NCBI GenBank assembly: GCA_964604915.1
Contig: CAZSAA010000003.1
Span: 1 to 41,941 of the forward strand
From: an uncultured Gammaproteobacteria bacterium
GTDB lineage: Bacteria > Patescibacteriota > Patescibacteriia > Patescibacteriales > UBA12465
Length of the DNA stretch: 41,941 nt
Direction: 5' to 3'
Shown in pieces: positions 9,299 through 36,826 of the stretch (position 1 is the first letter of the stretch; every line of letters starts with the position of its first letter). A model generated the notes under the pieces. That model did not search any database. It was not told the origin of the DNA and was given only the letters and a program-made list of their open reading frames with translations. A program made the position numbers and the translations under genes.

Positions 9299-9529
9299 TT
9301 AATTAGAGAAGAAAGGAAGATAGGTATTAAGGAATCCGCTGATTATAGGGGGGAGATAGATGACGCCGAGAACGACTGGGATGGCGATGAGCAGCAATCT
9401 CAGCCCCGACATCCGTTTCTGCCAGAGGATAAAACGGCGGATATCCGCGATATCTCGGGTTAATGCCTCTAAACTAGCTTGATTATCGCTAATCAATCTA
9501 GCCAGATCCGGTTTTTCTTCATTTTCCAT
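9299..9529 (-). CDS. Small membrane protein (hypothetical)
   Basis: 76 aa with a charged N-terminal helix and one long hydrophobic segment (LRLLLIAIPVVLGVIYLPPIISGF). The stop lies 8 nt upstream of the ATPase start. Confidence 0.5.
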   Translation of the reverse strand: MENEEKPDLARLISDNQASLEALTRDIADIRRFILWQKRMSGLRLLLIAIPVVLGVIYLPPIISGFLNTYLPFFSN

Positions 9530-9532
9530 ATA

Positions 9533-10255
9533 TTAGCGGCGGACTTGGCAGTTAGGCACGAATCTTTGGCCTATCTTCGCCAAATCATCCATTTTAACGG
9601 CGGTAAACGCCTGTTTGTTACGGAAAGAACCATTTACCAATTCCGTATCAGACTTGAAATCTTGTAGGTACCAGGCCCTTGCCCCTTCGATAAGGCGACC
9701 CATCGCCTCGATATCTTCCTCGTTGAGGAGCTGCGGTACGAGCGTACTGCGAAATTCATAGGGCAAGCCGCTCTCCTTTATAATTCTAACACTTTTTTCC
9801 AAACGAGGTAAATCGACCGGGGCGCCCACTACCTGTTCATACTTATCCAAAGGCGCCTTGATGTCCATAGCGATATAATCGATCAACTTCTCTTTTATCA
9901 GATATTCCAACATATCCGGATTAGTACCGTTACTATCGAGTTTAACGTCGTACCCCAAATTTTTAATCTGCCGGATAAAATCTGGCAAATCCGGGTGCAA
10001 GGTGGGCTCCCCACCGGTAATCACTACTCCATTTAATTTTTCTTTCCGCTCGGCTAAGAAAAGAAAAAGGTCATCTTGGCTCCAGCCGAGATAACCTTTC
10101 TCTTTTATACTATCGCTTGATTCTGACCGGGGCCAGACAAGCTGGGGATTGTAACAGAAGTGGCAGCGGAAATTGCAGCCTTGGGTGAAAACTATCGCTG
10201 CCAAATGGCCGGGATAGTCGATTAGGGTCAATTTTTCTAAACCTCCGATTCTCAT
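9533..10255 (-). CDS. nrdG: Anaerobic ribonucleoside-triphosphate reductase activating protein (radical SAM)
   Basis: CNFRCHFCYN (CxxxCxxC) cluster motif, GGEPTL, about 240 aa. I prefer the ATG at 10255, preceded by AAAGGTGGGA, over the track's GTG at 10273. Confidence 0.85.
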   Translation of the reverse strand: MRIGGLEKLTLIDYPGHLAAIVFTQGCNFRCHFCYNPQLVWPRSESSDSIKEKGYLGWSQDDLFLFLAERKEKLNGVVITGGEPTLHPDLPDFIRQIKNLGYDVKLDSNGTNPDMLEYLIKEKLIDYIAMDIKAPLDKYEQVVGAPVDLPRLEKSVRIIKESGLPYEFRSTLVPQLLNEEDIEAMGRLIEGARAWYLQDFKSDTELVNGSFRNKQAFTAVKMDDLAKIGQRFVPNCQVRR

Positions 10256-10325
10256 AGTATTATCAGTTCCCACCTTTCCGCGGCTTAGAAGATTGCCCCG
10301 ACCAAAGGCGGGTATTTATCCTCCT

Positions 10326-10490
10326 TTAGCGGTTCTCGCAGCTGCAATCAGCCACCTTGAAGAAGCGCCTATCCTTATACTCGGCCGCTTTGCCTTTGTT
10401 ATAGTTCTTGACCGGGGTAAGCCATCCTACCACGCGGCTATATACGATGCACTCTTGGCGCTCTAATTTGACTGGACTCATATCCTTCAT
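10326..10490 (-). CDS. Stand-alone 54-aa ORF encoding the class III RNR glycyl-radical domain
   Basis: Not in the ORF track because it is shorter than 60 aa. Translation is MKDMSPVKLERQECIVYSRVVGWLTPVKNYNKGKAAEYKDRRFFKVADCSCENR. The block VYSRVVG(W)LxPVxNYNxGKxxEYxDR matches the conserved C-terminal glycyl-radical region of NrdD (RxxGY...WNxGKxxE). The ATG is preceded by AAGGATGG. Confidence 0.7.
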   Translation of the reverse strand: MKDMSPVKLERQECIVYSRVVGWLTPVKNYNKGKAAEYKDRRFFKVADCSCENR

Positions 10491-10544
10491 AGGCTATAAT
10501 TCCCATCCTTTACAGGATAAAGGAAAAATTACCTGTTAATTAAT

Positions 10545-10573
10545 ATTATAGATTAATTTTGCTGTTCCCGCAA
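10545..10573 (-). promoter_or_regulatory. Candidate internal promoter (TTGCGG-17-TATAAT) at the 3' end of nrdD
   Basis: On the minus strand, TTGCGG (10568-10573) and TATAAT (10545-10550) are separated by 17 nt. It straddles the nrdD stop codon and lies about 55 nt upstream of the small glycyl-radical ORF. Confidence 0.35.
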
Positions 10574-13500
10574 ACTGAATTCCGCTTCGATCTCATCCCC
10601 CTTATAGCCCATCTCCTCGTCGCATTTGGGGCAATATTTATGTTCACCCGATAGATAGCCGTGCTTGGGACAGATAGAGAAGGTCGGGGTGATAGTGAAA
10701 TATGGCAGCCTATAGTTCTCGACGATACGTTTGACTAGATCCTTGGCAGTATTACCGTCAGGCAGGCGCTCGCCGATATAGCCATGAAGGACCGTGCCGC
10801 CGGTATACTTGGTTTGGAGATCATCTTGCAAGTCGAGAGCGGAAAACACATCTTCGGTAAAGCTGACAGGCAGATGGGAGGAATTGGTGTAATATGGATC
10901 CGCCCCATTATCCCTGACCGCCTTGTCGTTAGCGCAGATGATCTCGGGATACATTTCCCTATCCTTCTTGGCAAAACGATAGGTGCAGCCTTCCGCCGGG
11001 GTCGCCTCCAAATTATATAATATCCCGGTCTCTTCCTGGTACTTGAGCAGATGTTCCCGCATGAAGTCCAGGATTTCCTTGGCGAAGGCCTGTCCTTCGT
11101 CGGTGGTGAGATCCTTACCCAACAAGTTCAAGCAAGCCTCGTTCATACCATTGATACCGATAGTGTTGAAATGATTCTGCCAGTAGGTATTGAAGCGCTC
11201 CTTGATCTGGTCTAAATAATGACGGGAATACGGGTACAGTCCGTCTTCGGTGAATTTTTCAATCACCTTACGCTTGATACGCAGGCTCTCATCGCCCAGG
11301 TTCATGAGCCGCAACAGGCGCTGCTTGAATTCCTCCTTGTCTTTCGAGAGATGGCCGAGACGCGGCAAATTGATAGTGACGACGCCTAAACTGCCGGTGA
11401 GAGGATTAGCGCCAAATAGGCCGCCGCCTCGTTTGCGCAATTCGCGGTTGTCGAGACGTAAGCGGCAATTGTGAGTCAAGATACCGGTGGTACCGACGGT
11501 AAAGACCGGTTCACCGTTCTTTACCTCGAAACAATAAGCAGTGTTATTGCTTATTTTCTCTATCCGTTTAATCTTGACCCAGAGCCGCTTGGTTTTAGTA
11601 TCTTTAAACCAAACCTGTCCGTAATTACTCCGATTCAGCTGATAGAAGAGTACGGCGTAATTCGCTTCCTTGCCAAAGCGGCCTACCCGCTCGTCTTTAT
11701 AGATACTAGTCGCTGTGCCCAAAGTAGCTGCCAACATATTCAAGGTCTCCCTCATCTTTACGGAAGAAGTATAGATACGATGACGATTACCTCCGTCGGT
11801 ATCATAGTGGCCAGCTAAAACCGCTTGGCGGAAAGCAAGACTGGTACCGAACAATCTAGCGCGATAATGCTTATCCCTCTCCTTCCCTTCTACGAAATCT
11901 CGACAAAGGCCGACTGCGGCAGCTGAATGAATCTTAAGACTAACCAATTTAGATTTATCATATTCCTTTATTACGCTAGCCGCCCCGAAGTAATCGATCG
12001 CAATCTTAGTCAATTTAGTAATTACTTTAGGTTTAAAAGTCTTCTCTAATGAGAAAACTACGGTGACGTCTCCATCAAACGAGCCGTCCCCAGCATAAGC
12101 ACCGACTAGATACCCTAGATCGGGATTACCGCCTTCACCATTATAGGCATTCAAAGAGTATGGAAGATACATTCCGGACGTTAACTCACCTCCCTTTAAG
12201 ACTGCTTGCTTAGCATCCTTATTTGCCTTAATGAAATTAAGGTGTTCGGTAGTCATCTTTATCTCATGACCGTTATCCAAAACCACTTTGATCATTGACT
12301 GACGCAAGAAACGATTAAAATGTCCTTTGACAAAACGCCCATCACTATAAATTTCATATTCCTCTTTTGATCCGTTACCATTAAAGATATTTTTGATCTC
12401 ACAATACTCCAAACCTCGCCCGCGAGAAGAGCGTATGAGCACTTTCTCATCACCGGCCAAAGGACACATAGAACGCGCGTCATCAGGGTTCATGTCAGAA
12501 TTGACGAAATTCGAGAAATACGGGATGCCATATTTAGCAGTCATCTCCCACATCGGCTCGAGCGACTTGCGACTCCAATCGAAATTCTTATCGATGTTAT
12601 AGGTTGGGATCGGAAAACTAAAGACACGTCCGGTAGAGTCGCCTTCCAGCATGACCTGAGCAAAAGCTTCATTGAATAGGTCTATTTCTGGCTGAAAATC
12701 CTTGTATTTTTCCGGCATCATCTGCCCACCGACAATAGCGTTCTCTTCACCCAGAGTTGGCGACGGAGTGACATCCAAGGTCACGTTGGTAAAGGGGGTC
12801 TGGAAACCGACCCGGGTCGGGACGTTCACGTTGAACATGAATTCCTGCAAGCCCTGCTTCACTTCCTTGAAACTCAGGTTATCATAACGGATGAAAGGCG
12901 CTAGGAAGGTGTCGAAATTGGAGAAAGCTTGAGCACCAGCCGCTTCGCCTTGCAAGGTATAGAAAAAATTGACAATCTGACCCAAGGCACTGCGGAAATG
13001 CTTAGCCGGCTTACTCTGCACCTTCTCGCCGACGCCGCCAAAACCGCGGATGAGCAGGTCCTTGAGATCCCAGCCGCAACAATATGGAGCGAGCAAGCCG
13101 AGATCATGAATATGAATATCGCCATTGACGTGTGCCTCCCGGATTTCCTGAGGATATAATTTATTGAGCCAATACCGGGCAGAAACGGCGGAAGCGACGT
13201 AGTTATTGAGGCCTTGGACGGAAAAGCTCATGTTGCTATTCTCCTTGAGGCGCCAATCGGCGCGACCTAAATAATCCTCCATCAGCTTCTCTTCAGCTGT
13301 GAGATTATTAATATCACGCAATTGGCGGTGCTGTTCGCGATAAAGGATATAGCTCTTAGCTGCTTTGATCTGATGGTTCTCAATCAGAGTCTCCTCCACG
13401 ACATCCTGTACTTCTTCCACGGCCGGAATGCTATTCTTGTGGAACTTCTTGTTAAGCAAAGAGATGGCCTTATCGCTGATCTTCTCAGCGAGAGACATGT

Positions 13501-13612
13501 CCTCGATATCCACTGACATCAAAGCATTAAAAATTGCCTTAGTGATCTTCGCTTGGTCGAAGTCGACGATGTCGCCTGAACGTTTGCGAATCTTGGTGAT
13601 AGCTTCCGACAT
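10553..13612 (-). CDS. nrdD: Anaerobic (class III) ribonucleoside-triphosphate reductase large subunit, intein-containing, lacking the terminal glycyl-radical segment
   Basis: N-terminal ATP-cone (aa ~5-95). NrdD core blocks are LAPYCCGWDL, TLQGEAAGAQAF and the RSM|CRLRLD finger-loop region interrupted by the intein. C-terminal zinc ribbon is CPKHG...CPKC. The ORF then stops before any RxxGY motif. Confidence 0.9.
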   Translation of the reverse strand: MSEAITKIRKRSGDIVDFDQAKITKAIFNALMSVDIEDMSLAEKISDKAISLLNKKFHKNSIPAVEEVQDVVEETLIENHQIKAAKSYILYREQHRQLRDINNLTAEEKLMEDYLGRADWRLKENSNMSFSVQGLNNYVASAVSARYWLNKLYPQEIREAHVNGDIHIHDLGLLAPYCCGWDLKDLLIRGFGGVGEKVQSKPAKHFRSALGQIVNFFYTLQGEAAGAQAFSNFDTFLAPFIRYDNLSFKEVKQGLQEFMFNVNVPTRVGFQTPFTNVTLDVTPSPTLGEENAIVGGQMMPEKYKDFQPEIDLFNEAFAQVMLEGDSTGRVFSFPIPTYNIDKNFDWSRKSLEPMWEMTAKYGIPYFSNFVNSDMNPDDARSMCPLAGDEKVLIRSSRGRGLEYCEIKNIFNGNGSKEEYEIYSDGRFVKGHFNRFLRQSMIKVVLDNGHEIKMTTEHLNFIKANKDAKQAVLKGGELTSGMYLPYSLNAYNGEGGNPDLGYLVGAYAGDGSFDGDVTVVFSLEKTFKPKVITKLTKIAIDYFGAASVIKEYDKSKLVSLKIHSAAAVGLCRDFVEGKERDKHYRARLFGTSLAFRQAVLAGHYDTDGGNRHRIYTSSVKMRETLNMLAATLGTATSIYKDERVGRFGKEANYAVLFYQLNRSNYGQVWFKDTKTKRLWVKIKRIEKISNNTAYCFEVKNGEPVFTVGTTGILTHNCRLRLDNRELRKRGGGLFGANPLTGSLGVVTINLPRLGHLSKDKEEFKQRLLRLMNLGDESLRIKRKVIEKFTEDGLYPYSRHYLDQIKERFNTYWQNHFNTIGINGMNEACLNLLGKDLTTDEGQAFAKEILDFMREHLLKYQEETGILYNLEATPAEGCTYRFAKKDREMYPEIICANDKAVRDNGADPYYTNSSHLPVSFTEDVFSALDLQDDLQTKYTGGTVLHGYIGERLPDGNTAKDLVKRIVENYRLPYFTITPTFSICPKHGYLSGEHKYCPKCDEEMGYKGDEIEAEFSLREQQN
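11468..12466 (-). mobile_element. Intein (333 aa) with LAGLIDADG homing-endonuclease domain inside nrdD
   Basis: Starts at Cys383 (CPLAGDEKVLIRS, block A). Block B is TTEH. The two dodecapeptide motifs are LVGAYAGDGS and VLAGHYDTDG. Blocks F/G are AYCFEVKNGEPVFTV...GILTHN, followed by +1 Cys716. Codons at both junctions were checked against the DNA. Confidence 0.9.
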
Positions 13613-13627
13613 GGGAATTTTGCAAGA

Positions 13628-13659
13628 TGATAGATATTTCCTCCTTAAGATATCTATCA
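13628..13659 (-). promoter_or_regulatory. Perfect 10-bp hairpin presenting the nrdD Shine-Dalgarno in its loop
   Basis: Minus strand reads TGATAGATAT-cttAAGGAGGaa-ATATCTATCA. The 5' arm overlaps the nrdR TGA stop. The nrdD ATG is 16 nt downstream. Confidence 0.45.
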
Positions 13660-14127
13660 GCTCTTCTTATTAGTTTTTACCTTTATCAATTTATTAAGCT
13701 CTTTCTGGAACTCCGCCGCATCCTTGAAGGACTCATAGACGGAAGCGTAGCGGATATAGGCCACTTGGTCCGCCTTCTTAAGGTGGCGCATGGCGATAAG
13801 GCCTATCTGGCGGGAAGTCACTTCCGCCTGTCTGAGCTTCTGCAAATCCCGCTCTACGGCGTGGATAAGCTTCTTGAAGCCATCTTCGGTAATCGGGCGC
13901 TTCTCAAAAGCTTTCTTTAGCCCGCCCGCCAGCTTCTCGCGATTATAACTCTCCCGCCGTCCGTCGCGCTTAACTATCATCAAGTCCAAGAGCTCTATTT
14001 CCTCATAGGTGGAGAACCGGAAACCGCACTTTAAACATTCGCGCCGCCGCCTGATAGACAAGCCATCGATAGCTACGCGCGAGTCAACGACCTTAGTGTC
14101 TTCGAAATAACAGATGGGGCACTTCAT
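13657..14127 (-). CDS. nrdR: Transcriptional repressor NrdR
   Basis: N-terminal zinc ribbon MKCPICYFEDTKVVDSR...CLKCGFRFSTYE followed by an ATP-cone. 156 aa. Confidence 0.92.
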   Translation of the reverse strand: MKCPICYFEDTKVVDSRVAIDGLSIRRRRECLKCGFRFSTYEEIELLDLMIVKRDGRRESYNREKLAGGLKKAFEKRPITEDGFKKLIHAVERDLQKLRQAEVTSRQIGLIAMRHLKKADQVAYIRYASVYESFKDAAEFQKELNKLIKVKTNKKS

Positions 14128-14387: not shown

Positions 14388-15458
14388 TTATTTGACCTTA
14401 TACCTCGTACTTCTCCCCGCCCCCAACCTCTCAATTTTCTTCATATCAAGCAATTTATTCAAAACTTGGAGTATTGTGACAGTCGGCATATTCAAAGCTT
14501 CCCGGATTTCCTTCGGAGTTATTTCTTTCTTCTCTAAAATAAAATTCCAGACTGCCAATTGCTTTTCTGAAAGCAAAGTTTCAATCCTTTCTTTCTGGCT
14601 CAATCCAACGGCCATCTTCGCCTGATCGCGAATAACTTCCAAAAAAAACAAAAGCCACGGGATTATATTTGGTTCTTCGTCCTTCAATGTCTTCTGACTT
14701 TGATTGAGCGCCAGATAATAAGCATCTTTGTTATCTTCAATAAATTTCTCATGAGAAACATACGGCACAAAATCATAGCCGGTTTTTAACAATAACAAAT
14801 TCGTCAACACGCGCGATGTGCGACCATTGCCATCCTGAAAAGGATGGATCTTTAAAAATTCCAAAACAAAATTGCCGACAATCAAAAACGGATGGATTAA
14901 TTTTTCTTCCAGTGCCTTTTGTGTCCATTCAACTAGCTCATTCATTTCTTTTTGAGCCAAATGCGGAGGCGTTGGTTCGAATAAAATGCCAACAATATTT
15001 CCGCTCTTATCATAAGCTGCAACTGTATTATCGCCGAATTTATATTTACCTAAATGCCCTTGATCTTTATCGGAATATTTCAAAAGCTCTTTATGAAAAT
15101 GTTTGATAGTATTTTCACTAAATTTTATAGTTTGCCAAGCCTCAAAAATATTTTCCAGTAGCTCTTTATAGCCGGCGACTTCCTGCTCATCGCGGGTATT
15201 AAATTTTTGGACTTTGAGCCCGCTTTTAAATAACCTCTCAATTTCTTCATTGGAAAGTTTAGCGCCTTCAATACGCGTTGAAGATCCGGCTGAAGTTATC
15301 ACGGTTGATCTTTTAAGCACGGTCAAAATCTGGGGAGACAAAGTCACTCCCGCAGTCCACATGCCCTGGGAACGCTCAATTTCAGATATAAAACCCTGAA
15401 TCTTTTGTGCTTGGGGAACGTCTTTAAAATTAAATCTTTTAATAAATTTGTCGTTCAT
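14388..15458 (-). CDS. Fic family protein (AMPylase-type, class II autoinhibited) with C-terminal winged-helix-like region
   Basis: Core motif HPFQDGNGRTSR, which matches HxFx(D/E)GNGRxxR. The N-terminal inhibitory motif STRIEG matches (S/T)xxxE(G/N). 356 aa. The gene is visibly more AT-rich than its neighbours. Confidence 0.88.
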   Translation of the reverse strand: MNDKFIKRFNFKDVPQAQKIQGFISEIERSQGMWTAGVTLSPQILTVLKRSTVITSAGSSTRIEGAKLSNEEIERLFKSGLKVQKFNTRDEQEVAGYKELLENIFEAWQTIKFSENTIKHFHKELLKYSDKDQGHLGKYKFGDNTVAAYDKSGNIVGILFEPTPPHLAQKEMNELVEWTQKALEEKLIHPFLIVGNFVLEFLKIHPFQDGNGRTSRVLTNLLLLKTGYDFVPYVSHEKFIEDNKDAYYLALNQSQKTLKDEEPNIIPWLLFFLEVIRDQAKMAVGLSQKERIETLLSEKQLAVWNFILEKKEITPKEIREALNMPTVTILQVLNKLLDMKKIERLGAGRSTRYKVK

Positions 15459-27195: not shown

Positions 27196-30100
27196 TCAAT
27201 AATAATCTGGATAACCGCAATCATCAGGACAAGTATAGCTATCTTCATCATCCAAAGATTCGCAATTGCCATCGCCACACATCGGTAAATAACCGCAATC
27301 CTGCTCGCAGTATGAGCTATTCTCGTTACCGCCAGACAAGTCGCAATAACCGTCCCCGCAATAATATGAATTTTGATAGGAGTTTCCGCAGTCCTGATAG
27401 CAATAGCCATTATCCTCGCCATAATTACAGATACCGTCGCCGCAGTAACCAGAGACTACACAAGACCCGCAATCTTGGGAACAACTGCTACATTCTTCTC
27501 CCGTGCTGGAGGTACAGATACCATCCCCGCAATAATAGTTATACACGCATTTACCTGACGCATTGACTATGCCGCTAGCGGTGGTATATCCCAGAGTCAT
27601 CCGGCAAGCATCCCCATAACAACGATTGACATAACTATTGTCACCGCAACGATAGATATCACGATTATGCCAGTGGCTATTCTTGCAACTATCTTTACCG
27701 CCGGTATCCCCGACATCCTTAGGCCCATAGTCATTGCAACCGGACGGACAAGTTGGATTATCGATACAATCCGGATTATCCTTAGCAGTCTTGATAGAAC
27801 ACCCGTAGCTAGCCAAGACATCTCCTTCTTTGTAAGTAAACGCACTCACTGTCTCTAACAAGCTCCAGCACTTCTTCTCACACACCTTATTATTACACTT
27901 ATATCCTTCATCACAATCACCATCAGCTAAGCAGCCCACGCAGGCTTTGGAATTGGCGTCATATACGCCCTCGGTACAGATGCAGTTCTCCTCGCTGATA
28001 GTAACCGTGCCATCGTTGCATAATGCCTTAGCGCCGCAAGAGCCGTTGGTTATCGCTTTGATCGCTTGCTTAGTATCGTTATGGTTCATTTGGTCATAGG
28101 CATAGCCACTCACGTTGCCCGCAGCGCAAGTAGCATAAACACAAGCATCATAGCAGCCGTAGTTTTCCTGATACCAGGCTCCCCCGACCTTCAAATATCC
28201 ACTATTGCAGACCAGATTAGCATTGGAAATGGAAATTGCGGAATTATTGCAGGTCGCTGTTGCCGTCCAAGTACCACCATTGGCGCGATAGCAGGCTGAC
28301 CTAGTCACTGACTGGCTGCCACCATTATTCAAAGAGCTGTAGACATAACCGTCCTTGGTACCGGCCGGACAGAAGAAACTACAACCGATAGTGTTATACT
28401 TACAGGCGGCCGTGCAAGCTAAAGTGCCGCCAGCAAACCCTAGGCTAGAGCAAGTCTTGCTACCTATAGCACTGCCATCGCACTCTTCGCCCGATTCGAG
28501 CTGGCCATTGCCGCAAACCGGGACGGCCGGAGCCGGAGCGCTGCAGCCCGAAGCATCAAGCTGGCAAGCGGTGCACTTAAGGCTACCATTAGGGGTAGCG
28601 GCATTGACCGAAGCGCAAGTTTTGCCGCCAAAATTAGTGCCATCGCACTGTTCCCCCGTCTGAATTATACCATTGCCGCAAACCGGGGCGTTGGGGTCAG
28701 TGGCGGAACAGCCAGAAACGTCAATCTGACAATTAATACACTTTAGAGTACCATATGGCTTCGAAGAATTGACCGAAGCACAAGTGTTATTCCCGAAATT
28801 CGTACCTTCACATCCTTCCCAGGACTCAAGCTTGCCATTACCGCAAACCGGGGCGTTGGGGTCGGTGCCGGAACAACCAGAGGTGTCATACCGGCAAGAA
28901 TTGGAACACTTGAGCGTGCCATACGGAGTGGCAGCATTGATAGAGGAGCAAGTCTTACTATTTAAAGCACTGCCGTCGCATTGTTCGGAAGTCTGGTTGA
29001 TTATGCCGTCGCCGCAACTGGCGGCAGGAGTCTGCGTACTAGGGTCAGTTTGACAACTGCCATTGTTACAGATCTGGCTAGAGGAACAGCAAACACCAGA
29101 ACATAAGGACTTGCCATTGCTACAGAGGCAATTCGAGGAATTATAGCTACAATCCGCATTACAGCTTACCGAACCGCTAGTGCCCGAGAAAATGCTTGAG
29201 CAAGAAGCGCCGGTAAACGAGGCGTAGTCACAGCTTTCGTTACCAGAAACCTTGCCATCGCCGCAAACAGGAGTGCTAGGGTCAACCGAGGAGCAGCTGC
29301 TAGTATCGAGCGTACAAGAAACGCACTTCAGGTCGCCATACGGCGTACCGGAATTAACCGAAGCGCAAGTAGAATTAGAGGCGAACAGAGTGCCATCGCA
29401 AATTTCTCCGCTATCGATTTTACCATTACCGCAAACAGCAGTCGGATCTTCCGGCTGGGCAGGCGTACCGCAATCCGCCTGGCAATTGTTAGTGGTTTCC
29501 ATGTTTACCTGGACATTGGTGCCAGGGGAATATACCCTAGCTTGGCAATAGCCATCGCCGCAGTAACCGCCATAACCGCCGGTCTTGGCGCCAAAGACAC
29601 AATAACCATTAGTGGTGATAGGGTATGGCGACGTCGCTATCTTATACCCATCGGGTACGCAGCCATATTGTTTAGAAATGCTACTGCCACTAACGGTGGT
29701 AGAGACGCCAGCCGTGATATCGCACTGCTCATACCCGTTATTAGCCAAGCCGCCCTTACCCTCCGAATTGGGCGCTTGCAAAAGACCATCACCACAATAC
29801 GTATTGACTTTGAGTGGGATAGAGGCGGAGTTGGCTGAGCCCTTGGCGTCGGTAGCGGAAAGGATCATGTTATATGTCCCTAACACAGACGCCTGGCCGC
29901 TGATAGCATACTCACCATTGCTCTGAATAAGGGAGATGCCAGCCGGATTACCAGCCAGGCTCATATTATTAAAACAAGAGGAAGTCTGATCGCCGATACG
30001 GCAATAATAACTAGAAGAAAGCCTAGCTTCGGCCGGACATTGGACGTTAAGGCTGTTAGCACCAGGATGGAGACGGATAGCGAATTGCTTTTCCGAACAT

Positions 30101-31761
30101 GACCCCAAGGAATCACAAGCCCTGATCTTATAGCTAAAGCTCCGATCCTGATCGCTCAAGGAAGCAGATGGAGTAAGCGAGAGGCTATAATTAGACCTCG
30201 ACCCCTCAATCGTGTTTATAGTATTAACTCCAGCCAAGATGTCCGGCGAAGCATTGACTTTGGTAATAGTAAGCGTGATCGGTTGGTTATCATCCAAGAC
30301 ATAGAAGGAATAATTTAGCGGAGTGCTGGCACAAGAATAATAGTAGTCCAAGTCGCCAGCCTCGATCGAGGGGGCAAAATTCACTACTTCTTTCTTTACT
30401 TTGACCGTGAGGTTGGCCCGGATAATCCCACCGCGATTATCAGAAACGACTAATACTAACGGATAATCGCCAACATTTCCAGCCTTGGCCGCATAGACCA
30501 GCTTCTTATTAGCATTGCCGCTCATGTCCTTCAAGATCGGCGCTCCGCTCCAGCCTGTCCAGGTTGTACCCGAAGTTTCGAGCTGCCAGGACAGAGTATC
30601 TCCATCTTCATCACTGAGCTCAATATAGCCATTAAAAGCCTGATTCTCTTCTCCCTGCAAAGAAACTTCCACTAGTTGCGGCGCATGATTAGAAAAAGGG
30701 ACGCTAGGATCAAGATCATCTGGATCGTCGCCCGGCGTGATGGTGGAAACGACGGAATCTATATAATCTCCAACGCCCGTAACCTGACAAGAATGGTCGC
30801 CGAGCTCGCTTGAAGCCGTATCATACCCTAGAGCCCCGGATTCCATGAACGAACACAGCTCATATGATGTTCCGTTGCGATTGGCCGAATAGACGAACAG
30901 ATAGCTGTCTTGAGGAATTTCCAGGTTAGAAGTAGTAAGGGGAAAATAAAAACGAGAAGTAGAGGCGTTCCAACAACTCAAGGGGTCATGCCCGGGGCAA
31001 GTCGCTAGACGGTTAATCGGATCGACGTAGGACGAGGCCAAGGACAATGATTTCAATAACGAGGTGTTCCAGCTAGGCCAAGTAGAGAGGGTGAGGTTAG
31101 GAATATAGGTGCCAGCAGCCAAAGTAGGATAGTTTCCTTGACTAGTGTTATACGCGGCCAAGGAATATTTTAGATCCTCGATCATACCTAAACGCTTGAC
31201 GTCACGTATGACTTTGGATTTCAAGCTATCGCAATATAACCCATCGGGACAATCGCCATCCCCCAAACAATTCTTAGGCGTTGTCAGCTGGCAACGTTGG
31301 TTAACGCAGCTATACCCGTCCTGGCAGGCGCCTTCGCCGCTACAAGATATGGATGAGATAGAACAAGTGCCACTAGTACCGAGATTCTCATTAAATTTCC
31401 AATGCGAAACTATCCGCCCTAAGATATCTGTCGTTTCTTCCGCTTGGTCCTGGTTATAGGAGATAAGATAGACGTTCGTACTGATAATCTTGGAAGACGG
31501 ATCGACCGAAGCGGCATTTACATAGATGGTGCGGCCATTGCGGATAGCCGGATAACCATCCACCGTCATAGACTGAGGCGACCCGCCTATGCCTTTGAGC
31601 TGATACCACTTGGCGATGCTGTAGTGGTTAGGGTTGGGAATGATCTTTACCGCGATCGCATCGGAAGAGCTGGCCGAAAATACCGCCGCTTTCATAGCGA
31701 ACAAGGATACGGCTACCACCGCCAAAGCTATCAGCAAATATGCCTTTGAGTTTAGCTTCAT
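27196..31761 (-). CDS. Giant secreted cysteine-rich protein (1521 aa) with Ig/cadherin-like segments and Cys-rich repeat arrays
   Basis: Uninterrupted 4.5-kb ORF with a signal peptide (AYLLIALAVVAVSLFAMKA). It contains a pilin-like YP segment (LAAYNTSQGNYPTLAAG), beta-rich segments, six CG(N/D)G...CDG repeats and four C-terminal CGDGxC repeats. Confidence 0.8.
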   Translation of the reverse strand: MKLNSKAYLLIALAVVAVSLFAMKAAVFSASSSDAIAVKIIPNPNHYSIAKWYQLKGIGGSPQSMTVDGYPAIRNGRTIYVNAASVDPSSKIISTNVYLISYNQDQAEETTDILGRIVSHWKFNENLGTSGTCSISSISCSGEGACQDGYSCVNQRCQLTTPKNCLGDGDCPDGLYCDSLKSKVIRDVKRLGMIEDLKYSLAAYNTSQGNYPTLAAGTYIPNLTLSTWPSWNTSLLKSLSLASSYVDPINRLATCPGHDPLSCWNASTSRFYFPLTTSNLEIPQDSYLFVYSANRNGTSYELCSFMESGALGYDTASSELGDHSCQVTGVGDYIDSVVSTITPGDDPDDLDPSVPFSNHAPQLVEVSLQGEENQAFNGYIELSDEDGDTLSWQLETSGTTWTGWSGAPILKDMSGNANKKLVYAAKAGNVGDYPLVLVVSDNRGGIIRANLTVKVKKEVVNFAPSIEAGDLDYYYSCASTPLNYSFYVLDDNQPITLTITKVNASPDILAGVNTINTIEGSRSNYSLSLTPSASLSDQDRSFSYKIRACDSLGSCSEKQFAIRLHPGANSLNVQCPAEARLSSSYYCRIGDQTSSCFNNMSLAGNPAGISLIQSNGEYAISGQASVLGTYNMILSATDAKGSANSASIPLKVNTYCGDGLLQAPNSEGKGGLANNGYEQCDITAGVSTTVSGSSISKQYGCVPDGYKIATSPYPITTNGYCVFGAKTGGYGGYCGDGYCQARVYSPGTNVQVNMETTNNCQADCGTPAQPEDPTAVCGNGKIDSGEICDGTLFASNSTCASVNSGTPYGDLKCVSCTLDTSSCSSVDPSTPVCGDGKVSGNESCDYASFTGASCSSIFSGTSGSVSCNADCSYNSSNCLCSNGKSLCSGVCCSSSQICNNGSCQTDPSTQTPAASCGDGIINQTSEQCDGSALNSKTCSSINAATPYGTLKCSNSCRYDTSGCSGTDPNAPVCGNGKLESWEGCEGTNFGNNTCASVNSSKPYGTLKCINCQIDVSGCSATDPNAPVCGNGIIQTGEQCDGTNFGGKTCASVNAATPNGSLKCTACQLDASGCSAPAPAVPVCGNGQLESGEECDGSAIGSKTCSSLGFAGGTLACTAACKYNTIGCSFFCPAGTKDGYVYSSLNNGGSQSVTRSACYRANGGTWTATATCNNSAISISNANLVCNSGYLKVGGAWYQENYGCYDACVYATCAAGNVSGYAYDQMNHNDTKQAIKAITNGSCGAKALCNDGTVTISEENCICTEGVYDANSKACVGCLADGDCDEGYKCNNKVCEKKCWSLLETVSAFTYKEGDVLASYGCSIKTAKDNPDCIDNPTCPSGCNDYGPKDVGDTGGKDSCKNSHWHNRDIYRCGDNSYVNRCYGDACRMTLGYTTASGIVNASGKCVYNYYCGDGICTSSTGEECSSCSQDCGSCVVSGYCGDGICNYGEDNGYCYQDCGNSYQNSYYCGDGYCDLSGGNENSSYCEQDCGYLPMCGDGNCESLDDEDSYTCPDDCGYPDYY
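27211..27537 (-). repeat. Four C-terminal CGDG(I/Y/N)C ... C.(Q/D)DCG mini-modules (aa 1409-1517)
   Basis: The four copies are YYCGDGICTSSTGEECSSCSQDCG, GYCGDGICNYGEDNGYCYQDCG, YYCGDGYCDLSGGNENSSYCEQDCG and PMCGDGNCESLDDEDSYTCPDDCG. Confidence 0.8.
28378..29439 (-). repeat. Six ~55-aa Cys-rich repeats (VCGNGxxExGExCDG...TC(A/S)S(V/I)N..TPYG(T/D)LKC..C..D.SGCS), aa ~775-1128
   Basis: The repeats read directly from the translation. Adjacent copies share near-identical DNA, for example ccgcaaaccggggcgttggggtc at about 28680 and about 28840. They resemble the CGNG...EECDDGN myxococcal Cys-rich repeat / DUF4215 type. Confidence 0.8.
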
Positions 31762-31780
31762 ATCGTTATATATCTTTTTA

Positions 31781-34700
31781 TCATTTGACTATCTTACTCG
31801 GCCAAGCGGCTCTCACGCTCTCATTCCCTGAATCGTCACGGGCGGAAATGGCAAAATAATGATCACCCGAGGAAAGCTTAGCCAAATCAAGTTCCATCTT
31901 GTTCGTCGCCTTGCCCGTGGCTTCAAAATATTCGACATAGGTTCCTGCCGCCACGCCGTGGTAGACGCGGTATGAGACAGTGTCATCAGTATTAGCCGTC
32001 CAAGAGAAGGTGAGCTTCGAAGCATCAATCGATACTGAGAAATCTATCGGTACGGCTGGCTTCTGCTGGTCGGTCGGTACGACCGAAAGCTGCGCCGATA
32101 ACTGACTTTCCGCTTTAGCCGCTGAAACAGCAGAAATGCGGAAATAGTACCTTGCATCATTCTCTAGTCCCGTAAGGCTAACCTGGCATTGGTAATAATC
32201 ACCGGGCTTAGGATTAGCGGGCGTACAGGCAGAGAGCGGCGATACATCCTTATTACTAAAGGCGGCATCTCCCTGCTTCTGATAGTATATCTTATACGTT
32301 CCTAGCTTGGAAGCGTCTGTCTGATACAAGATGTCGGCCGGACTGCGCCAAGCGAGTTCGATTGCGCCACCAGTTTCCCGGTCGCTAGCCGAGAGCAACT
32401 CTACCGGACTCGGCAGGCTCTCCCGGAAGAAGTATGATTCCTTGAGTACGTTCCAGACGCAGATACCGTCAGCGTTGCCGTCTCTATCTTCGTCATTACC
32501 ACAAGCAGCATATAATTCCGAGCAAGGATTCCCATTATTAGTGCAAGCTAACTGGTTTCCTGTACCGGTAATGACGGCGGGGTTGATGATGGCCGGCAAG
32601 TCATCCTGACTGCCGCCTTGGCCATTATCGCGGCAGTAATAGAAGGCATAGCCGTAGCCGGAACAAGCACCGCCCGTGGAATTATCGCAATTATCCTTCC
32701 AGGGCGTCCAAGTGCCATCATTATTTACCGTCGGCCACGGATTATCGCAGATAAATATATACACCGGAGCGCTATAGCGATAGCTATCGCCGCCCAGATA
32801 ATAGTTGCAGCAATTTTCCGGGCAACTAGGCCCGCTACAGGAACAGGAGTCGCTCTCGCAAGATTCGCCTTTGAAACGAGCCATCGACACCGTAGCGCTG
32901 ACATAAGTATTACCATCGCTGATACCTTGGTTCGCTCTCACTAGTCGATAGTTACCTGGAGCGCCGGCTAAAACGTTGATCTTGACCAAACTCTCGCCGT
33001 CCGGGCTGTTCCAACTCCAATCCCAGGCATAGCCAGTTACCTGATGCAATTCTTCGCCGGATGAGCTATAGGCATGAGCGATAAAGAGCTTATCGCCGTC
33101 GTTCTGATTATCGAAATTATCCGCCTGCCAGTTCGAATCGTCCTCATCGATATGATTCTCGGTGGTCTGGAAGAGATATGAATAGGGATCGACACTCACG
33201 CTGGCGATATTACATATCCCGTTATTATCGCTCTGATTAGGCAGGGTGGAAAAGCGCATGATATAGGAATTGGGGAAAGATTGGCCGTTGAAGGTCATGC
33301 TTCCGCCCGAAATATAAGCGCTTCCGTTAAGCGGAAGATAACCACGTCCGTTCATCCCTATCCCCCAGGACGATAGCACGCCAGAATTGCTGTCTAAAGC
33401 CGCATCGCCTTTGATAATCGCATAATATGCCGTATCGGCCGCCAAAACTCCTATAGGTTGGATCGAAACGGCACTCTTGGATCCATCACCCTCGGATGCG
33501 AGGCTAGCTGGGACTAGGCAATAGAAGTTAGCGCTGGTATCGGCGGATACTGCCTGGCCGAAGATATCCTTAACGAAGGCAAGTACCCTATAGAATACCC
33601 TGGCAATATAACTATCGCTACCTCGAGCGGTATTGATGCCACCAAGTGCGGTGCCGCTAGGACATGCCTCATCGCCGGCGCTACGCTCCTCCAGTAACAG
33701 GACATTCCCGTCTAGGCTGCTGAAAGCCAAGCTCTGATTAAAGGGCACGTTTATCACCGTATTGCGACAGACGTTATCCTGATTATTGGCTGGAGATACC
33801 GAGTCTTCTTCCACTTGCGGCCGGGCACGGCAGCAGGCTCCGCTATCGCAACCGACCGAAGCAGCGTCGCCGCAATCACTATCAAGTGAACAGCCGCAAC
33901 AGAGGCCACGGTTCTCACCGGAACAGGGCGCTTGATTAGCTAAGCAACTCAGGTTCTTAGTGCCAGGCAGGTTGCACGAATCTTCATTGCTGACATCGCA
34001 ACAGCAGGCCCCACATTCGCCGGTACTACCTTGGCTGCCCGAATCGGCCAGGCAAGCGAAAGGCGACGCGCATAGGCCAAGGGCGCAAGAAGAAGGTTTC
34101 TGATCATCCTGGCAACTCATGCCGACAATAGAAGATCCGTTGTTAGCGCAAGCGCTCTGGCAACTTATCATCCCCTTGAACCTTCCAGTAGCGGCTGGGA
34201 TAGAGTTACATTGGTTAGTATTGGGCAAGCAATCATAATAGGCGCAAAAAGCACTCTCATTCAGGCGCGTGCCCTTGGAACAAAGGCTAGTAGCCTGATC
34301 AAAGCAGCAGCCGGAAGCCGCCTGACAACTAGTAACATCCCCGTCAAACAGTGAACAATAATTCTTGTTCGAATCCAACTTACAGCCATCATTGCAATCA
34401 TCTAAGGTCGAGAAATAGCCGACTTTGAGAGGATTAGAAGCAGCGCATAGTCCGGACTCATCGGATTGGCAGTCATAATACGCACAATAGCCATAATCAG
34501 GATTTGAAGCATCACTGGTAAGGGCGGTGCCATTACCGGACCGACACGCGTCATCGCTAGGATCGAGATTCTGCTTCGCGTCGAAGCAGCAAGCTTCAGC
34601 ATAAACGGAACAAGCCGCCCTATCTTGGTCGAAATCAGAACACTTTATACACTCATCTCCAACCATAATATCGCAATCATCTTCGTCGCCGGATAGCCCG

Positions 34701-36811
34701 GTATCGAATTTCCATTCGAACACGGAAGCCGGCGCGGCGATAGCGCAATCGGCCAGGCTGTCAGCGCAACGTCCGGCTTTATAGGTATTTTCCCCGCAGC
34801 AGACCTGGTTAGAGCAATCCCCGTCCGATTCGCACTCCCCGACCGCAAAGTTCAAGCTATTACTATCGAGATTATCCCGCCTAACTAGCAAGGGGCCGGT
34901 GACCGCGCCTTGCGGCACCTTGATCTCCAGCTTATCCGCATCACCGTCCTCCTTTACGACGGAAGAGGTAGCGACATTCTTAGAAAAAACGATAGCAGCG
35001 GCCTGCCCTTTATTACCGAAATTCTCACCCCATAGACTTATAGGATTGCCGATTTGCCCGGTAGTCGGCTTTACCTTACATAGGCTAGGCAAGAGATCAA
35101 GGGACGGATCGACTCGAAAACGATTGACTGCCAGCTTATCAGCATTAACCTCTTCACCCCCCTTGCTTATGCGCAAGGAATAGTTGCCATCCGCTATGCC
35201 TTCCGGTACTTTCACTATTATCTGATTGTTCTCCCAGACCGAGTCCAGACATTGCTCCGGGAAGCGGTAATCCGCTTCCGTCTCGCCGAAATAGACATGG
35301 CTGCTACCGCGCACCGAGCCGAAACCACTACCATAGATCGTAACATATTGACCGGCCTTGCCGCTGCGCGGCTCGAAAGAAGATATATAGAAATCGGAAG
35401 CAGAATCGTAATTTTTAGAAAAATACAGATAGTTGCTATATTGATTGACCCCGCCCTCCGTGGTAGACACGAAACTAGAGACCTCGCCGCCCTTGATATT
35501 TGGCACTTTAGCTGTACCGACAAATCCTAACGGATCAATGAAGCTAGAGTATAATCCTTTGGCATTATCCTCATAATCCCCGAAATAGGCGTCGGCGCCA
35601 CTAAGACTAAGGCCATAATATGAAACATCATCACTAAGATCACCGGATTCAGGATTGAGCTTGCATAATCCAGGCCGATCAATGGAATTAACCACGAAAT
35701 CGGCTAAACGAGGACCACGCTCATCATCGGTAGTATCAGTATTATCACCACCGCGCGTGACACTAATTGCTCCAGCTCTGGCTGAAGGCGGCACTACTAC
35801 TACGATCTGGGTATCACTCCAATTATTGCCGCATTCCGGATTGAGGCTCTGCGGGAAAACGGCGATAGCGTCATCGCCTCCATCCTGGCTATTGCCCAAG
35901 AAAGTCACCTTTCCCTGACCGTCAGCATTATCACCGAAGTTCTTGCCGAAGATACTGATGATATTGCCGGATGCGCCGTTAGGAGTAATGGCGTCACAGG
36001 CCGCACCGCCGCAATCCGAAGCGTCTTCGCAAGCCTTATCATTATCATTACTACAGAAACCGCCTATCGGACTCATTCCCTTTATCACTGGCGCGCCGAC
36101 GCACTGGCAGCTTTCCGTATCGCAAGACAGGTATTCCGAACACAAATCGTCATCTGCGCTGCATGTATCCGCATCGCTAGAACAAGCATCGCCCAGATCG
36201 CCCTGCGCTTCGCAGGCACAAGTATCAGTATTGCAAGTATAGCCATCGGCGCAGATCGAAGCATTAGCCTGGCAGCCAGAGCTAAGACTGCTGTCGCAAG
36301 AAGTCTCGACATTGCCACTGCTGCAGTCAGACCCGAGGCATGGCCCCCAGCTGCCGCCAATACAGGAAATACGTCCGCCGCAACCGCAGGAAAGGAACTG
36401 GCCGGACTGGCAAGAACCGCTTCCGCCGCCATTGCCGCCGTTACTAGTGCCTAGCAGTTGATTAAGGACGAACGTAGCGATACCCCAAGCGGACAATATT
36501 ATGACAAGGCCGACCACGCCGTTCTTGAGGACCTGCTTTGCCCTATCGATCTTATCACTCTCGCCGTTGCTGGTGAGCCAGATGAAGCCGCCCCAGAGAA
36601 CGATAAGCAAGGCGATAGTCCCGAGAGCTAACATCGCGATATTTATTATCCTCCCGACTGTTTCCCGCGGATCAGTATTGCTAAGTCCGATCGATTCGTC
36701 TATCACTTCTAGGCCTAAATCGGCAGCCAAGGCTTGGCTCGCCCCGAAAAATAGGGAGAATATCCCGACACCTAGTGCTAAGGTTATAAGTATCTTCTTC
36801 ATTTTGTTCAT
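31781..36811 (-). CDS. Giant surface protein (1676 aa): VirB2/TrbC-like N-terminal module, Cys-rich regions, IPT/TIG-like, Big_5-like and two FN3 domains
   Basis: Uninterrupted 5-kb ORF. Domain calls come from motifs, detailed in the sub-features below. Confidence 0.8.
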   Translation of the reverse strand: MNKMKKILITLALGVGIFSLFFGASQALAADLGLEVIDESIGLSNTDPRETVGRIINIAMLALGTIALLIVLWGGFIWLTSNGESDKIDRAKQVLKNGVVGLVIILSAWGIATFVLNQLLGTSNGGNGGGSGSCQSGQFLSCGCGGRISCIGGSWGPCLGSDCSSGNVETSCDSSLSSGCQANASICADGYTCNTDTCACEAQGDLGDACSSDADTCSADDDLCSEYLSCDTESCQCVGAPVIKGMSPIGGFCSNDNDKACEDASDCGGAACDAITPNGASGNIISIFGKNFGDNADGQGKVTFLGNSQDGGDDAIAVFPQSLNPECGNNWSDTQIVVVVPPSARAGAISVTRGGDNTDTTDDERGPRLADFVVNSIDRPGLCKLNPESGDLSDDVSYYGLSLSGADAYFGDYEDNAKGLYSSFIDPLGFVGTAKVPNIKGGEVSSFVSTTEGGVNQYSNYLYFSKNYDSASDFYISSFEPRSGKAGQYVTIYGSGFGSVRGSSHVYFGETEADYRFPEQCLDSVWENNQIIVKVPEGIADGNYSLRISKGGEEVNADKLAVNRFRVDPSLDLLPSLCKVKPTTGQIGNPISLWGENFGNKGQAAAIVFSKNVATSSVVKEDGDADKLEIKVPQGAVTGPLLVRRDNLDSNSLNFAVGECESDGDCSNQVCCGENTYKAGRCADSLADCAIAAPASVFEWKFDTGLSGDEDDCDIMVGDECIKCSDFDQDRAACSVYAEACCFDAKQNLDPSDDACRSGNGTALTSDASNPDYGYCAYYDCQSDESGLCAASNPLKVGYFSTLDDCNDGCKLDSNKNYCSLFDGDVTSCQAASGCCFDQATSLCSKGTRLNESAFCAYYDCLPNTNQCNSIPAATGRFKGMISCQSACANNGSSIVGMSCQDDQKPSSCALGLCASPFACLADSGSQGSTGECGACCCDVSNEDSCNLPGTKNLSCLANQAPCSGENRGLCCGCSLDSDCGDAASVGCDSGACCRARPQVEEDSVSPANNQDNVCRNTVINVPFNQSLAFSSLDGNVLLLEERSAGDEACPSGTALGGINTARGSDSYIARVFYRVLAFVKDIFGQAVSADTSANFYCLVPASLASEGDGSKSAVSIQPIGVLAADTAYYAIIKGDAALDSNSGVLSSWGIGMNGRGYLPLNGSAYISGGSMTFNGQSFPNSYIMRFSTLPNQSDNNGICNIASVSVDPYSYLFQTTENHIDEDDSNWQADNFDNQNDGDKLFIAHAYSSSGEELHQVTGYAWDWSWNSPDGESLVKINVLAGAPGNYRLVRANQGISDGNTYVSATVSMARFKGESCESDSCSCSGPSCPENCCNYYLGGDSYRYSAPVYIFICDNPWPTVNNDGTWTPWKDNCDNSTGGACSGYGYAFYYCRDNGQGGSQDDLPAIINPAVITGTGNQLACTNNGNPCSELYAACGNDEDRDGNADGICVWNVLKESYFFRESLPSPVELLSASDRETGGAIELAWRSPADILYQTDASKLGTYKIYYQKQGDAAFSNKDVSPLSACTPANPKPGDYYQCQVSLTGLENDARYYFRISAVSAAKAESQLSAQLSVVPTDQQKPAVPIDFSVSIDASKLTFSWTANTDDTVSYRVYHGVAAGTYVEYFEATGKATNKMELDLAKLSSGDHYFAISARDDSGNESVRAAWPSKIVK
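31784..32416 (-). other. Two C-terminal fibronectin type III domains (aa ~1466-1676)
   Basis: First domain: PSPVELLSA...AIELAWRSP...YKIYYQ...YYFRISAVS. Second domain: PIDFSVS...LTFSWTAN...YRVYHG...HYFAISARDDSGNES. Confidence 0.65.
34847..36094 (-). other. Three IPT/TIG-like domains (aa ~240-655)
   Basis: PVIKGMSPIGG...IISIFGKNFG...KVTFLG, then ISSFEPRSGKAGQYVTIYGSGFG...HVYFGE, then LCKVKPTTGQIGNPISLWGENFG. Confidence 0.55.
36452..36811 (-). other. N-terminal T4SS-pilin-like (VirB2/TrbC-like) module of the 1676-aa protein
   Basis: The signal peptide ends ALA|ADLG. Next come helix 1 (RIINIAMLALGTIALLIVLWGGFIWLT), the loop SNGESDKIDRAKQVLKNG and helix 2 (VVGLVIILSAWGIATFVL). Confidence 0.6.
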
Positions 36812-36826
36812 ATTAAATCTGCCCGA

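Follow-up and report, generated by a model that had tools for sequence, protein, structure and literature searches.

A split class III ribonucleotide reductase in Patescibacteria, with the glycyl-radical loop encoded by a separate small gene

The stretch of DNA analysed here (contig CAZSAA010000003.1 of assembly GCA_964604915.1, positions 1 to 41,941; this whole stretch of 41,941 nt is called the window below) was deposited as an uncultured Gammaproteobacteria bacterium, has a Patescibacteriota lineage in GTDB, and encodes a class III ribonucleotide reductase (RNR) whose chain is divided between two genes. The locus lies entirely on the minus strand, in the order nrdR, nrdD, a 54-aa open reading frame (ORF), nrdG and a 76-aa membrane ORF; the NrdD encoded there ends shortly after its zinc ribbon, and the glycyl-radical loop is found on the 54-aa ORF instead. 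Comparison across related genomes confirms that the split is real and conserved and not an artefact, and establishes, at the level of genes, the fission itself, its conservation, purifying selection, an exact tiling of NrdD profiles by the two products, and linkage to nrdG. We therefore favour, with a probability of roughly 80%, a class III RNR made of two polypeptides, in which the peptide would be an obligate radical subunit.

The large subunit (nrdD, 10553..13612, minus strand; 1019 aa including an intein) comprises an ATP-cone, the catalytic barrel, the intein and a zinc ribbon, and scores as a whole class III NrdD well above curated cut-offs: 1009 bits for NF006126 (cut-off 548), 507 for TIGR02487 (326) and 588 for PF13597 (26). 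The match to the Pfam NRDD profile stops at position 529 of 562, and the alignment with the Thermotoga maritima NrdD (4COI) stops at residue 610 of 651 (CPVCGK). The last conserved element of the chain is the zinc ribbon CPKH...CPKC (10622..10672, minus strand), aligned with C...H...CPVC of T. maritima; with the nearest fused homologue recovered (P0323, 70% identical), the alignment runs through CPKC, residue 369. The nrdD stop lies 22 residues past the zinc ribbon, following a C-terminal tail that reads DEEMGYKGDEIEAEFSLREQQN (10556..10621, minus strand), and the glycyl-radical motif R-[VI]-x-G-[YFW] is absent from the large chain, its counterpart RVVGW being located on the separate 54-aa ORF.

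This small ORF (10326..10490, minus strand) encodes MKDMSPVKLERQECIVYSRVVGWLTPVKNYNKGKAAEYKDRRFFKVADCSCENR and supplies what the large one lacks. It matches Pfam NRDD at positions 531-562 of 562 (E = 9e-7, above the gathering score), is placed by NCBIfam PRK08270 (684 positions) at 649-683, and aligns with residues 364-408 of the 409 in the fused homologue; its profile aligns to residues 616-645 of the 651 in T. maritima NrdD (YMRIVGYLVPV...), the predicted radical residue Gly22 of RVVGW (codon 10425..10427, minus strand) falling on the Gly of RIVGY. Each of the four references (Pfam NRDD, PRK08270, 4COI and P0323) is tiled by the two ORFs together, as an earlier note on this DNA, written from the sequence alone, had expected of an NrdD profile. 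Models of NrdD are the only ones to recognize the peptide: PF01228 (Gly_radical) and GrcA models gave no match at E <= 1, and no dedicated model for such a small protein is present in Pfam, NCBIfam or PHROGs. The ORF boundaries proposed in that note hold, with the qualification that relatives conserve the second ATG (MSP, 10481) as their start, giving a 51-aa product and a 71-nt spacer. The peptide is thus a stop-bounded, stand-alone product of 51-54 aa bearing an invariant YSRVVG; in the alignment of homologues, Y17-S-R-V-V-G22, P, GK, E and R are invariant, and the Trp after the Gly is nearly so. Its 36-codon core is under purifying selection, with pS = 0.82 (saturated), pN = 0.15, and a median ratio of nonsynonymous to synonymous substitution rates (dN/dS) of about 0.10.

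Between the two genes, the intergenic spacer (10491..10552, minus strand) measures 62 nt to the first ATG, so that the frames of nrdD and of the small ORF differ; it contains extra stops in the nrdD frame, and a TAG lies two codons ahead of the ATG, all of which agrees with the earlier description of the nrdD end, the spacer length, the frames and the stops. Fused relatives read CPKC-VIEQRA-EVYSRVVGY, with CPKCVIEQRAEVYSRVVGY at the position of the tail, whereas the window reads CPKC-DEEMGY...(22 aa)-stop-spacer-MSPVKLERQEC-IVYSRVVGW. The two homologous blocks are thus set apart by about 155 nt without homology, and the break is not a one-base shift.

The same split is found throughout the relatives of this locus. 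The closest 120 homologues of the small ORF are all stand-alone, with 41-87 aa, and three homologue contigs show nrdR, an intein-free nrdD (683-704 aa), the small ORF, nrdG and a small membrane ORF in this order, two of the three sharing the flanking synteny of the window. A scan of one genome per species returned at least 586 stretches encoding a relative of the small ORF, of which the best 80 were fetched, almost all of them labelled Falkowbacteria, Parcubacteria/Paceibacterota or Patescibacteria. In 79 of these 80 loci the motif sits inside a stop-bounded ORF starting with M-[S/A/T]-P and 46-79 codons long (129 in L067, whose ORF includes a run of N), and nrdD stops 9-57 residues after CPKC in all 76 loci with a readable upstream gene. 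Across the 79 unique loci the peptide has 44-54 aa, the spacer ranges from 10 to 249 nt (median 77), and the small ORF stands in phase 0, 1 or 2 relative to nrdD in 38, 19 and 22 cases. When the C-terminal half of the large subunit is used instead, about 90 of the best 120 homologues end early in the same way, fused forms appearing from rank 46 with at most 70% identity. nrdR keeps its place directly 5' of nrdD in related loci, and nrdG was adjacent in all those inspected. Two adjacent genes that jointly cover one RNR chain are, in short, a feature conserved within a clade, and relatives are not uniformly fused. Many metagenome-assembled genomes (MAGs) deposited as "uncultured Gammaproteobacteria bacterium" (binchicken co-assemblies; e.g. 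L012-L014, L017 and L019) also carry this Patescibacteria-type locus and its synteny, and their Gammaproteobacteria labels look wrong.

That the split stems from faulty sequencing or assembly, or from a recent frameshift leaving nrdD a pseudogene or in truth a single ORF, is compatible with one window taken alone, given that MAG assemblies do contain frameshifts and that NCBI labels many relatives "partial", but this idea retains next to no probability against the same break in 76 of 76 evaluable species genomes and in many independent metagenome contigs, spacers in all three phases with multiple stops, a conserved ATG-Ser-Pro start, lineage-specific tails after the zinc ribbon, closest relatives that are all split, and the low dN/dS. 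The preference of the earlier note for a two-gene enzyme over an indel artefact is accordingly upheld, with the split found in at least 76 species genomes, and is further backed by the other gene orders and unlinked copies described below.

In a Pacearchaeota (DPANN) MAG (L095), nrdD is followed by a 44-aa ORF and nrdG; elsewhere a 50-aa ORF comes after both nrdD and nrdG (L097), the small ORF and the end of nrdD overlap, beside a class II RNR (L096), or, on a viral contig (L162), it lies immediately 5' of a shortened nrdD ending CPKCEAEG. On 14 contigs, a 48-aa peptide of the GY type is encoded in the dcw cluster, between rsmH (after mraZ) and a 114-aa ORF, for example at L092 5001-5147, L093 4167-4313 and L094 1632-1778, where no nrdD was called in the 10 kb covered. 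Judged from these arrangements, the small gene behaves as an independent gene.

They also bear on whether the two ORFs might be joined at expression, by frameshifting, readthrough, bypassing (as in T4 gene 60), RNA splicing or split-intein trans-splicing. RNR genes are preferred sites for introns, inteins and homing endonucleases, the nrdD of the window carries an intein itself, and phage nrdD genes are often interrupted (PMC3653736). However, co-translational joining cannot apply where the small gene comes after nrdG or ahead of nrdD, or lies elsewhere in the genome, and the variable phase, the 25-fold variation in spacer length with nothing alignable, and the variable gene order rule out frameshifting, readthrough, bypassing and splicing. 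At 62-71 nt here, and down to 10 nt in one relative, the spacer has no room for a group I or II intron; an Rfam scan at E <= 1 found no intron or other RNA family in it, related spacers contain no alignable element, and a remnant of an intron or of a known RNA element was discarded as a candidate. A split intein was rejected likewise, as searches with Pfam and NCBIfam detected no Hint motifs in the large-subunit tail or in the 6-10 residues ahead of the homologous block of the peptide, and the tails are unconserved beyond DEEIGY. Any form of joining is thus extremely improbable.

The two-polypeptide reading assigns distinct tasks to the products. The ATP-cone, the ten-stranded barrel, the zinc ribbon and, after intein removal, an intact Cys-Cys finger loop would come from the large subunit. 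The peptide of about 51 aa, whose core is RQECIVYSRVVGWLTPVKNYNKGKAAEYKDR, would contribute the Gly loop together with the C-terminal segment, which make up the last ~35 residues of an ordinary NrdD. NrdG, encoded next door (9533..10273, minus strand; a radical S-adenosylmethionine (SAM) activase matching TIGR02495 NrdG2 with 205 bits against a cut-off of 131), would abstract a hydrogen atom from Gly22 of the peptide, a step suggested by the adjacency of nrdG. The peptide, predicted to be disordered on its own, would dock non-covalently into the barrel beside the zinc ribbon, where, in the manner of fused NrdD, its glycyl radical would turn the finger-loop cysteine into a thiyl radical. Since the large chain is devoid of a radical loop, the peptide would be an obligate small subunit, in effect a protein-borne radical cofactor. 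AlphaFold2 models the peptide alone mostly as coil (mean predicted local distance difference test score, pLDDT, of 60.6, and below 50 in the Gly region), and such low-confidence coil is consistent with a segment that needs its partner in order to fold.

The small protein could have been given other roles, as a strict spare in the manner of GrcA or as a regulator or decoy of NrdG, the radical of the large subunit then residing elsewhere, for example on the Gly of the DEE-I-G-Y tail. The tails of split relatives, 9-57 aa long in the 79 unique loci, mostly begin with DEEIGY, DEEIGF or DEEMGY, their conservation being limited to these first six residues; this DEE[IM]G[YF] motif, in which a Gly precedes an aromatic residue, is present in split forms only, and the unlinked and phage-borne copies of the small gene look like spare parts. 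Nevertheless, the tail lacks both the R-V-x-G context and the P...N.GK..E..R block, which never varies among NrdD radical loops, its Gly is replaced in several relatives (DEERSQ, DEEKNQ, QEKGI), and the profile positions missing from the large subunit are supplied by the small ORF alone, which makes these roles very improbable. The tail motif could be a docking site for the peptide or for NrdG, or a relic of a former Gly loop. Among the tails of the related loci (L010-L089), a subset of longer ones closes with a conserved ...ER.II.AIA. Cysteine pairs (CC, CxC, CxxC) terminate many peptides and large-subunit tails, with at least two Cys in one or the other C-terminus in 24 of the 79 unique loci, and the peptide of the window ends in ADCSCENR (10329-10349, minus strand); by analogy they call to mind the tails that serve class I and II RNRs as redox shuttles, and the finger loop is of the Cys-Cys type.

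GrcA itself is the closest known parallel. Escherichia coli GrcA/YfiD and Y06I (vs.6) from phage T4 are the only validated autonomous glycyl-radical proteins, both serving pyruvate formate-lyase (PFL) (PMC8683613, PMC13450708); Andorfer et al. 2021 speculate that further spare-part proteins may exist beyond PFL (PMC8683613), and a 2026 review names the formate lyases as the sole class of glycyl-radical enzymes with such proteins (PMC13450708). Like the peptide described here, they are small, stand-alone and built around a glycyl-radical loop, and exist in a phage-borne version; they also use the radical-SAM activase of their partner and act in trans on a large catalytic core, as the peptide encoded next to nrdG would do. 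The likeness put forward in the earlier note therefore holds as an analogy between autonomous glycyl-radical proteins, but not as far as a spare part or family membership is concerned. GrcA has a PFL-type Gly_radical domain (PF01228, TIGR04365), whereas the peptide is of NrdD type only, and its membership of the GrcA family was discarded for want of a Gly_radical or GrcA model match. GrcA is moreover a folded domain of 127 aa, whereas the peptide has ~47-51 aa and is predicted to be disordered alone; and it replaces the radical domain that a PFL has lost to oxygen, whereas the partner NrdD, here and in 76 related genomes, never has one of its own.

Stand-alone domains of NrdD type extend well beyond this clade. 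A profile search of 1.84 billion representative proteins gave 4674 matches at E <= 1e-3; the best 150 are almost all short and Met-initiated, of GW, GY or GF type, and in about 20 of these 150 the zinc ribbon is part of the protein, which reveals a second break point. Scanning IMG/VR with zinc-ribbon-plus-Gly-loop proteins returned 320 relatives, and among the best 80 loci examined (L098-L177) about 69 are stand-alone ORFs, 45 with the zinc ribbon and 24 without (e.g. L100 3986-4294 and L117 3932-4279); nrdD or nrdG lies within 4 kb of them only at L162, L173, L174 and L176. Two long contigs have phage-like neighbours (endolysins, a helicase, a nucleotidyltransferase and a radical-SAM protein). 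These orphan viral radical domains have no PHROG family, and tblastn of a zinc-ribbon-type stand-alone protein against GenBank phages gave two weak matches only. By analogy with T4 Y06I, this suggests that they are phage-borne NrdD-type radical domains. A widespread and unrecognized class of NrdD-type autonomous glycyl-radical proteins may thus exist in three forms, namely the obligate ~47-aa subunit of much of Patescibacteria and some DPANN archaea, the unlinked bacterial copies, and the phage zinc-ribbon-plus-Gly-loop orphans, the latter two of which could re-arm or hijack oxygen-damaged host NrdD; we rate the odds of this wider proposal as even.

Whether the small gene is transcribed on its own is addressed by the spacers, which in related loci are AT-rich (mean GC content of 18.6%). 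An exact TATAAT occurs in 43 of 80 unique spacers, as against 20.5 +/- 3.7 (maximum 30) in dinucleotide-preserving shuffles, although these 80 spacers share ancestry and are not phylogenetically independent; the hexamers cluster 8-26 nt or 42-94 nt upstream of the ATG. This enrichment makes a separate promoter for the small gene plausible. The TTGCGG-17-TATAAT sequence suggested earlier as a promoter is present in the window (10573-10545, with the TATAAT at 10545-10550), but it is the -10 element that gains credit from relatives, the -35 element matching only 3 of 6 positions and the candidate not passing a promoter scan. The other regulatory proposal, a Shine-Dalgarno sequence sequestered in a hairpin (10506-10524), does not stand up: both elements are present in the sequence, but the fold is not significant (z = -1.65, with 12 of 200 shuffles folding equally well), the hairpin is not conserved in relatives, and a Shine-Dalgarno-like motif is present in just 10 of 80 related spacers. 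If the small gene is indeed transcribed apart from nrdD, as the -10 enrichment suggests, an oxygen-cleaved peptide could be replaced without remaking the ~78-kDa subunit.

A neutral origin is the most serious alternative to such a benefit. The fission would then be real and the pieces would reassemble, but the break, located in a flexible linker, would have been fixed by drift in small-population symbionts. Drift is strong in genome evolution within the candidate phyla radiation (CPR) and DPANN, the break coincides exactly with the short linker, of 5-6 residues in fused forms, that joins the zinc ribbon to the Gly loop, and the split NrdJa+b and the Aeh1 NrdA-a/b show that fission of an RNR is tolerated (PMC5704485, PMC3653736). 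Against this, the split has been kept over a divergence deep enough to saturate pS, and fission is met repeatedly, at break points that leave the small piece with or without the zinc ribbon and in several gene orders; stand-alone NrdD-type domains are abundant on phage contigs free of nrdD, which suggests that a trans-acting radical domain is useful in itself; and -10 hexamers are enriched ahead of the small gene. Three of these observations, the two break points, the abundance of phage stand-alone domains and the -10 enrichment, lean towards function, and we consider purely neutral fission unlikely, while granting it an appreciable share of the probability. The benefit, if there is one, could lie in cheap replacement of oxygen-cleaved peptide or in giving the activase easier access.

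Several points weigh against a functional two-polypeptide enzyme as we propose it. The whole case is built on MAG or metagenome sequence, the docking of the peptide is argued from homology to fused enzymes, and an advantage in replacement or repair is speculative, as neutral fission would leave the same sequence pattern. A Trp follows the radical Gly where the usual residue is Tyr, with GY and GF split forms existing elsewhere. The intein of this particular copy also raises a difficulty. It spans 332 aa (NrdD aa 384-715; 11468..12463, minus strand), includes a LAGLIDADG domain, matches Pfam Intein_splicing and LAGLIDADG_3 as well as TIGR01445 and TIGR01443, and interrupts the finger-loop cysteines between ARSMC and CRLRL, intein-less homologues reading ARSMCCRLRL. 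The exteins are intact and ~79% identical to relatives, and both cysteines required for a thiyl radical are present, but, the intein being inserted between them, an intact finger loop depends on splicing. To judge from intein-less homologues and from position 2 of the TIGR01445 profile, which falls on aa 385, the intein apparently starts with Pro and not with Cys, and a failure to splice would leave this copy of the large subunit without activity. There is a Cys in block F (AYCFEV), and the sequence of block G is THN. In sequence the intein resembles class 3 inteins, with no Trp seen at the expected position of block B.

Compared with RNRs already known to be divided or modular, the arrangement has partial precedents. 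Canonical NrdD proteins (T4 1H7A; T. maritima 4COI/4U3E; Prevotella copri 8P23) have the same domains in the same order, the zinc ribbon, the same Gly-loop family and an NrdG partner, but their Gly loop follows 5-6 residues past the zinc ribbon in one chain, whereas here a stop, a spacer and a new start intervene. The split class II NrdJa+b of Pseudomonas aeruginosa similarly has its C-terminal module on a separate adjacent gene in a conserved subclass, and the two proteins together give activity (PMC5704485); NrdJb is, however, a cysteine-rich zinc-finger domain for terminal reduction and not a radical site, in an RNR of another class with adenosylcobalamin as cofactor. RNR genes are frequently targeted by mobile elements, and in Aeromonas phage Aeh1 the chain lies in two ORFs, NrdA-a and NrdA-b, with function retained (PMC3653736, PMC3045599). 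The Aeh1 split was caused by, and still contains, the homing-endonuclease gene mobE, inside the catalytic body; in contrast, the spacer here is without a mobile-element gene and the break isolates the radical loop alone. The nrdD fragments of phage phiAS4 are recent breaks, 97% identical to an intact gene and with no conserved architecture. Class I RNR alpha/beta is a conceptual analogue, in that the radical is kept on a subunit other than the substrate-binding one, although its beta subunit is a ferritin-like metalloprotein with long-range radical transfer, whereas the radical carrier here would be a short peptide inserting into the barrel. None of the known split RNRs compared isolates the radical loop. 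We found no description of a split NrdD radical domain in the open-access literature, an absence that is no proof, and the arrangement is apparently undescribed, in agreement with the curated libraries and with what the earlier note had supposed.

The surroundings of the locus are those of an ordinary chromosomal region of a Patescibacteria-type genome, and no second RNR gene was found among the annotated neighbours in the window. nrdR, the transcriptional repressor of RNR genes (13657..14127, minus strand; Pfam Zn_ribbon_NrdR and ATP-cone), lies directly upstream of nrdD. Downstream of nrdG, the 76-aa membrane ORF (9299..9529, minus strand) is predicted to be single-pass and has no Pfam match; membrane ORFs of 76-93 aa always follow nrdG in these lineages, and the syntenic ones at L001 (6917-7186), L004 (6961-7206) and L007 (7035-7316) have 81-93 aa, 25-30% identity and a conserved I..P...G...LP. 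The membrane ORF may be a further component of the RNR locus, its membership being uncertain. Other neighbours are ftsX, a DD-carboxypeptidase, a GT2 glycosyltransferase, RNase T, a TraG/VirD4-like ATPase, ftsZ, ftsA, pilD, secDF, relA/spoT and giant pilin-like surface proteins. A Fic/DOC-family gene (14388-15458, minus strand) between ftsZ and nrdR does not occur in the otherwise syntenic L001 and L004 and probably represents an insertion specific to this lineage. Within 27196-39460 (minus strand) lie three very large ORFs (1521, 1676 and 877 aa), two of them with type IV secretion system pilin-like N-termini followed by Ig-like, TIG or fn3 domains, as is typical of CPR surface proteins. A weak Rfam match to ctRNA_p42d inside nrdG (10057-10101, minus strand; 26.7 bits against a gathering score of 50, E = 0.011) is most likely due to chance.

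In automated annotation, these nrdD genes are called partial or fragmentary, and the ~50-aa gene is often overlooked or given a wrong name, so that metabolic reconstructions of CPR and DPANN may misjudge the only route to deoxyribonucleoside triphosphates. In the activation of glycyl-radical enzymes, the radical domain must exit the barrel and enter the activase, and a free radical domain of 5-6 kDa would be an ideal minimal substrate for studies of activation, docking and radical transfer. The question of spare parts beyond PFL also becomes directly testable for RNR. In evolutionary terms, class III RNR would here converge on the logic of class I, with a separate radical-bearing subunit, through repeated fission at the junction between zinc ribbon and Gly loop. 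The orphan radical domains of NrdD type that phage contigs carry would make up a new class of auxiliary genes and, if phage or unlinked copies do re-arm or hijack NrdD, PFL would no longer be the only glycyl-radical enzyme with a spare-part or radical-cofactor system.

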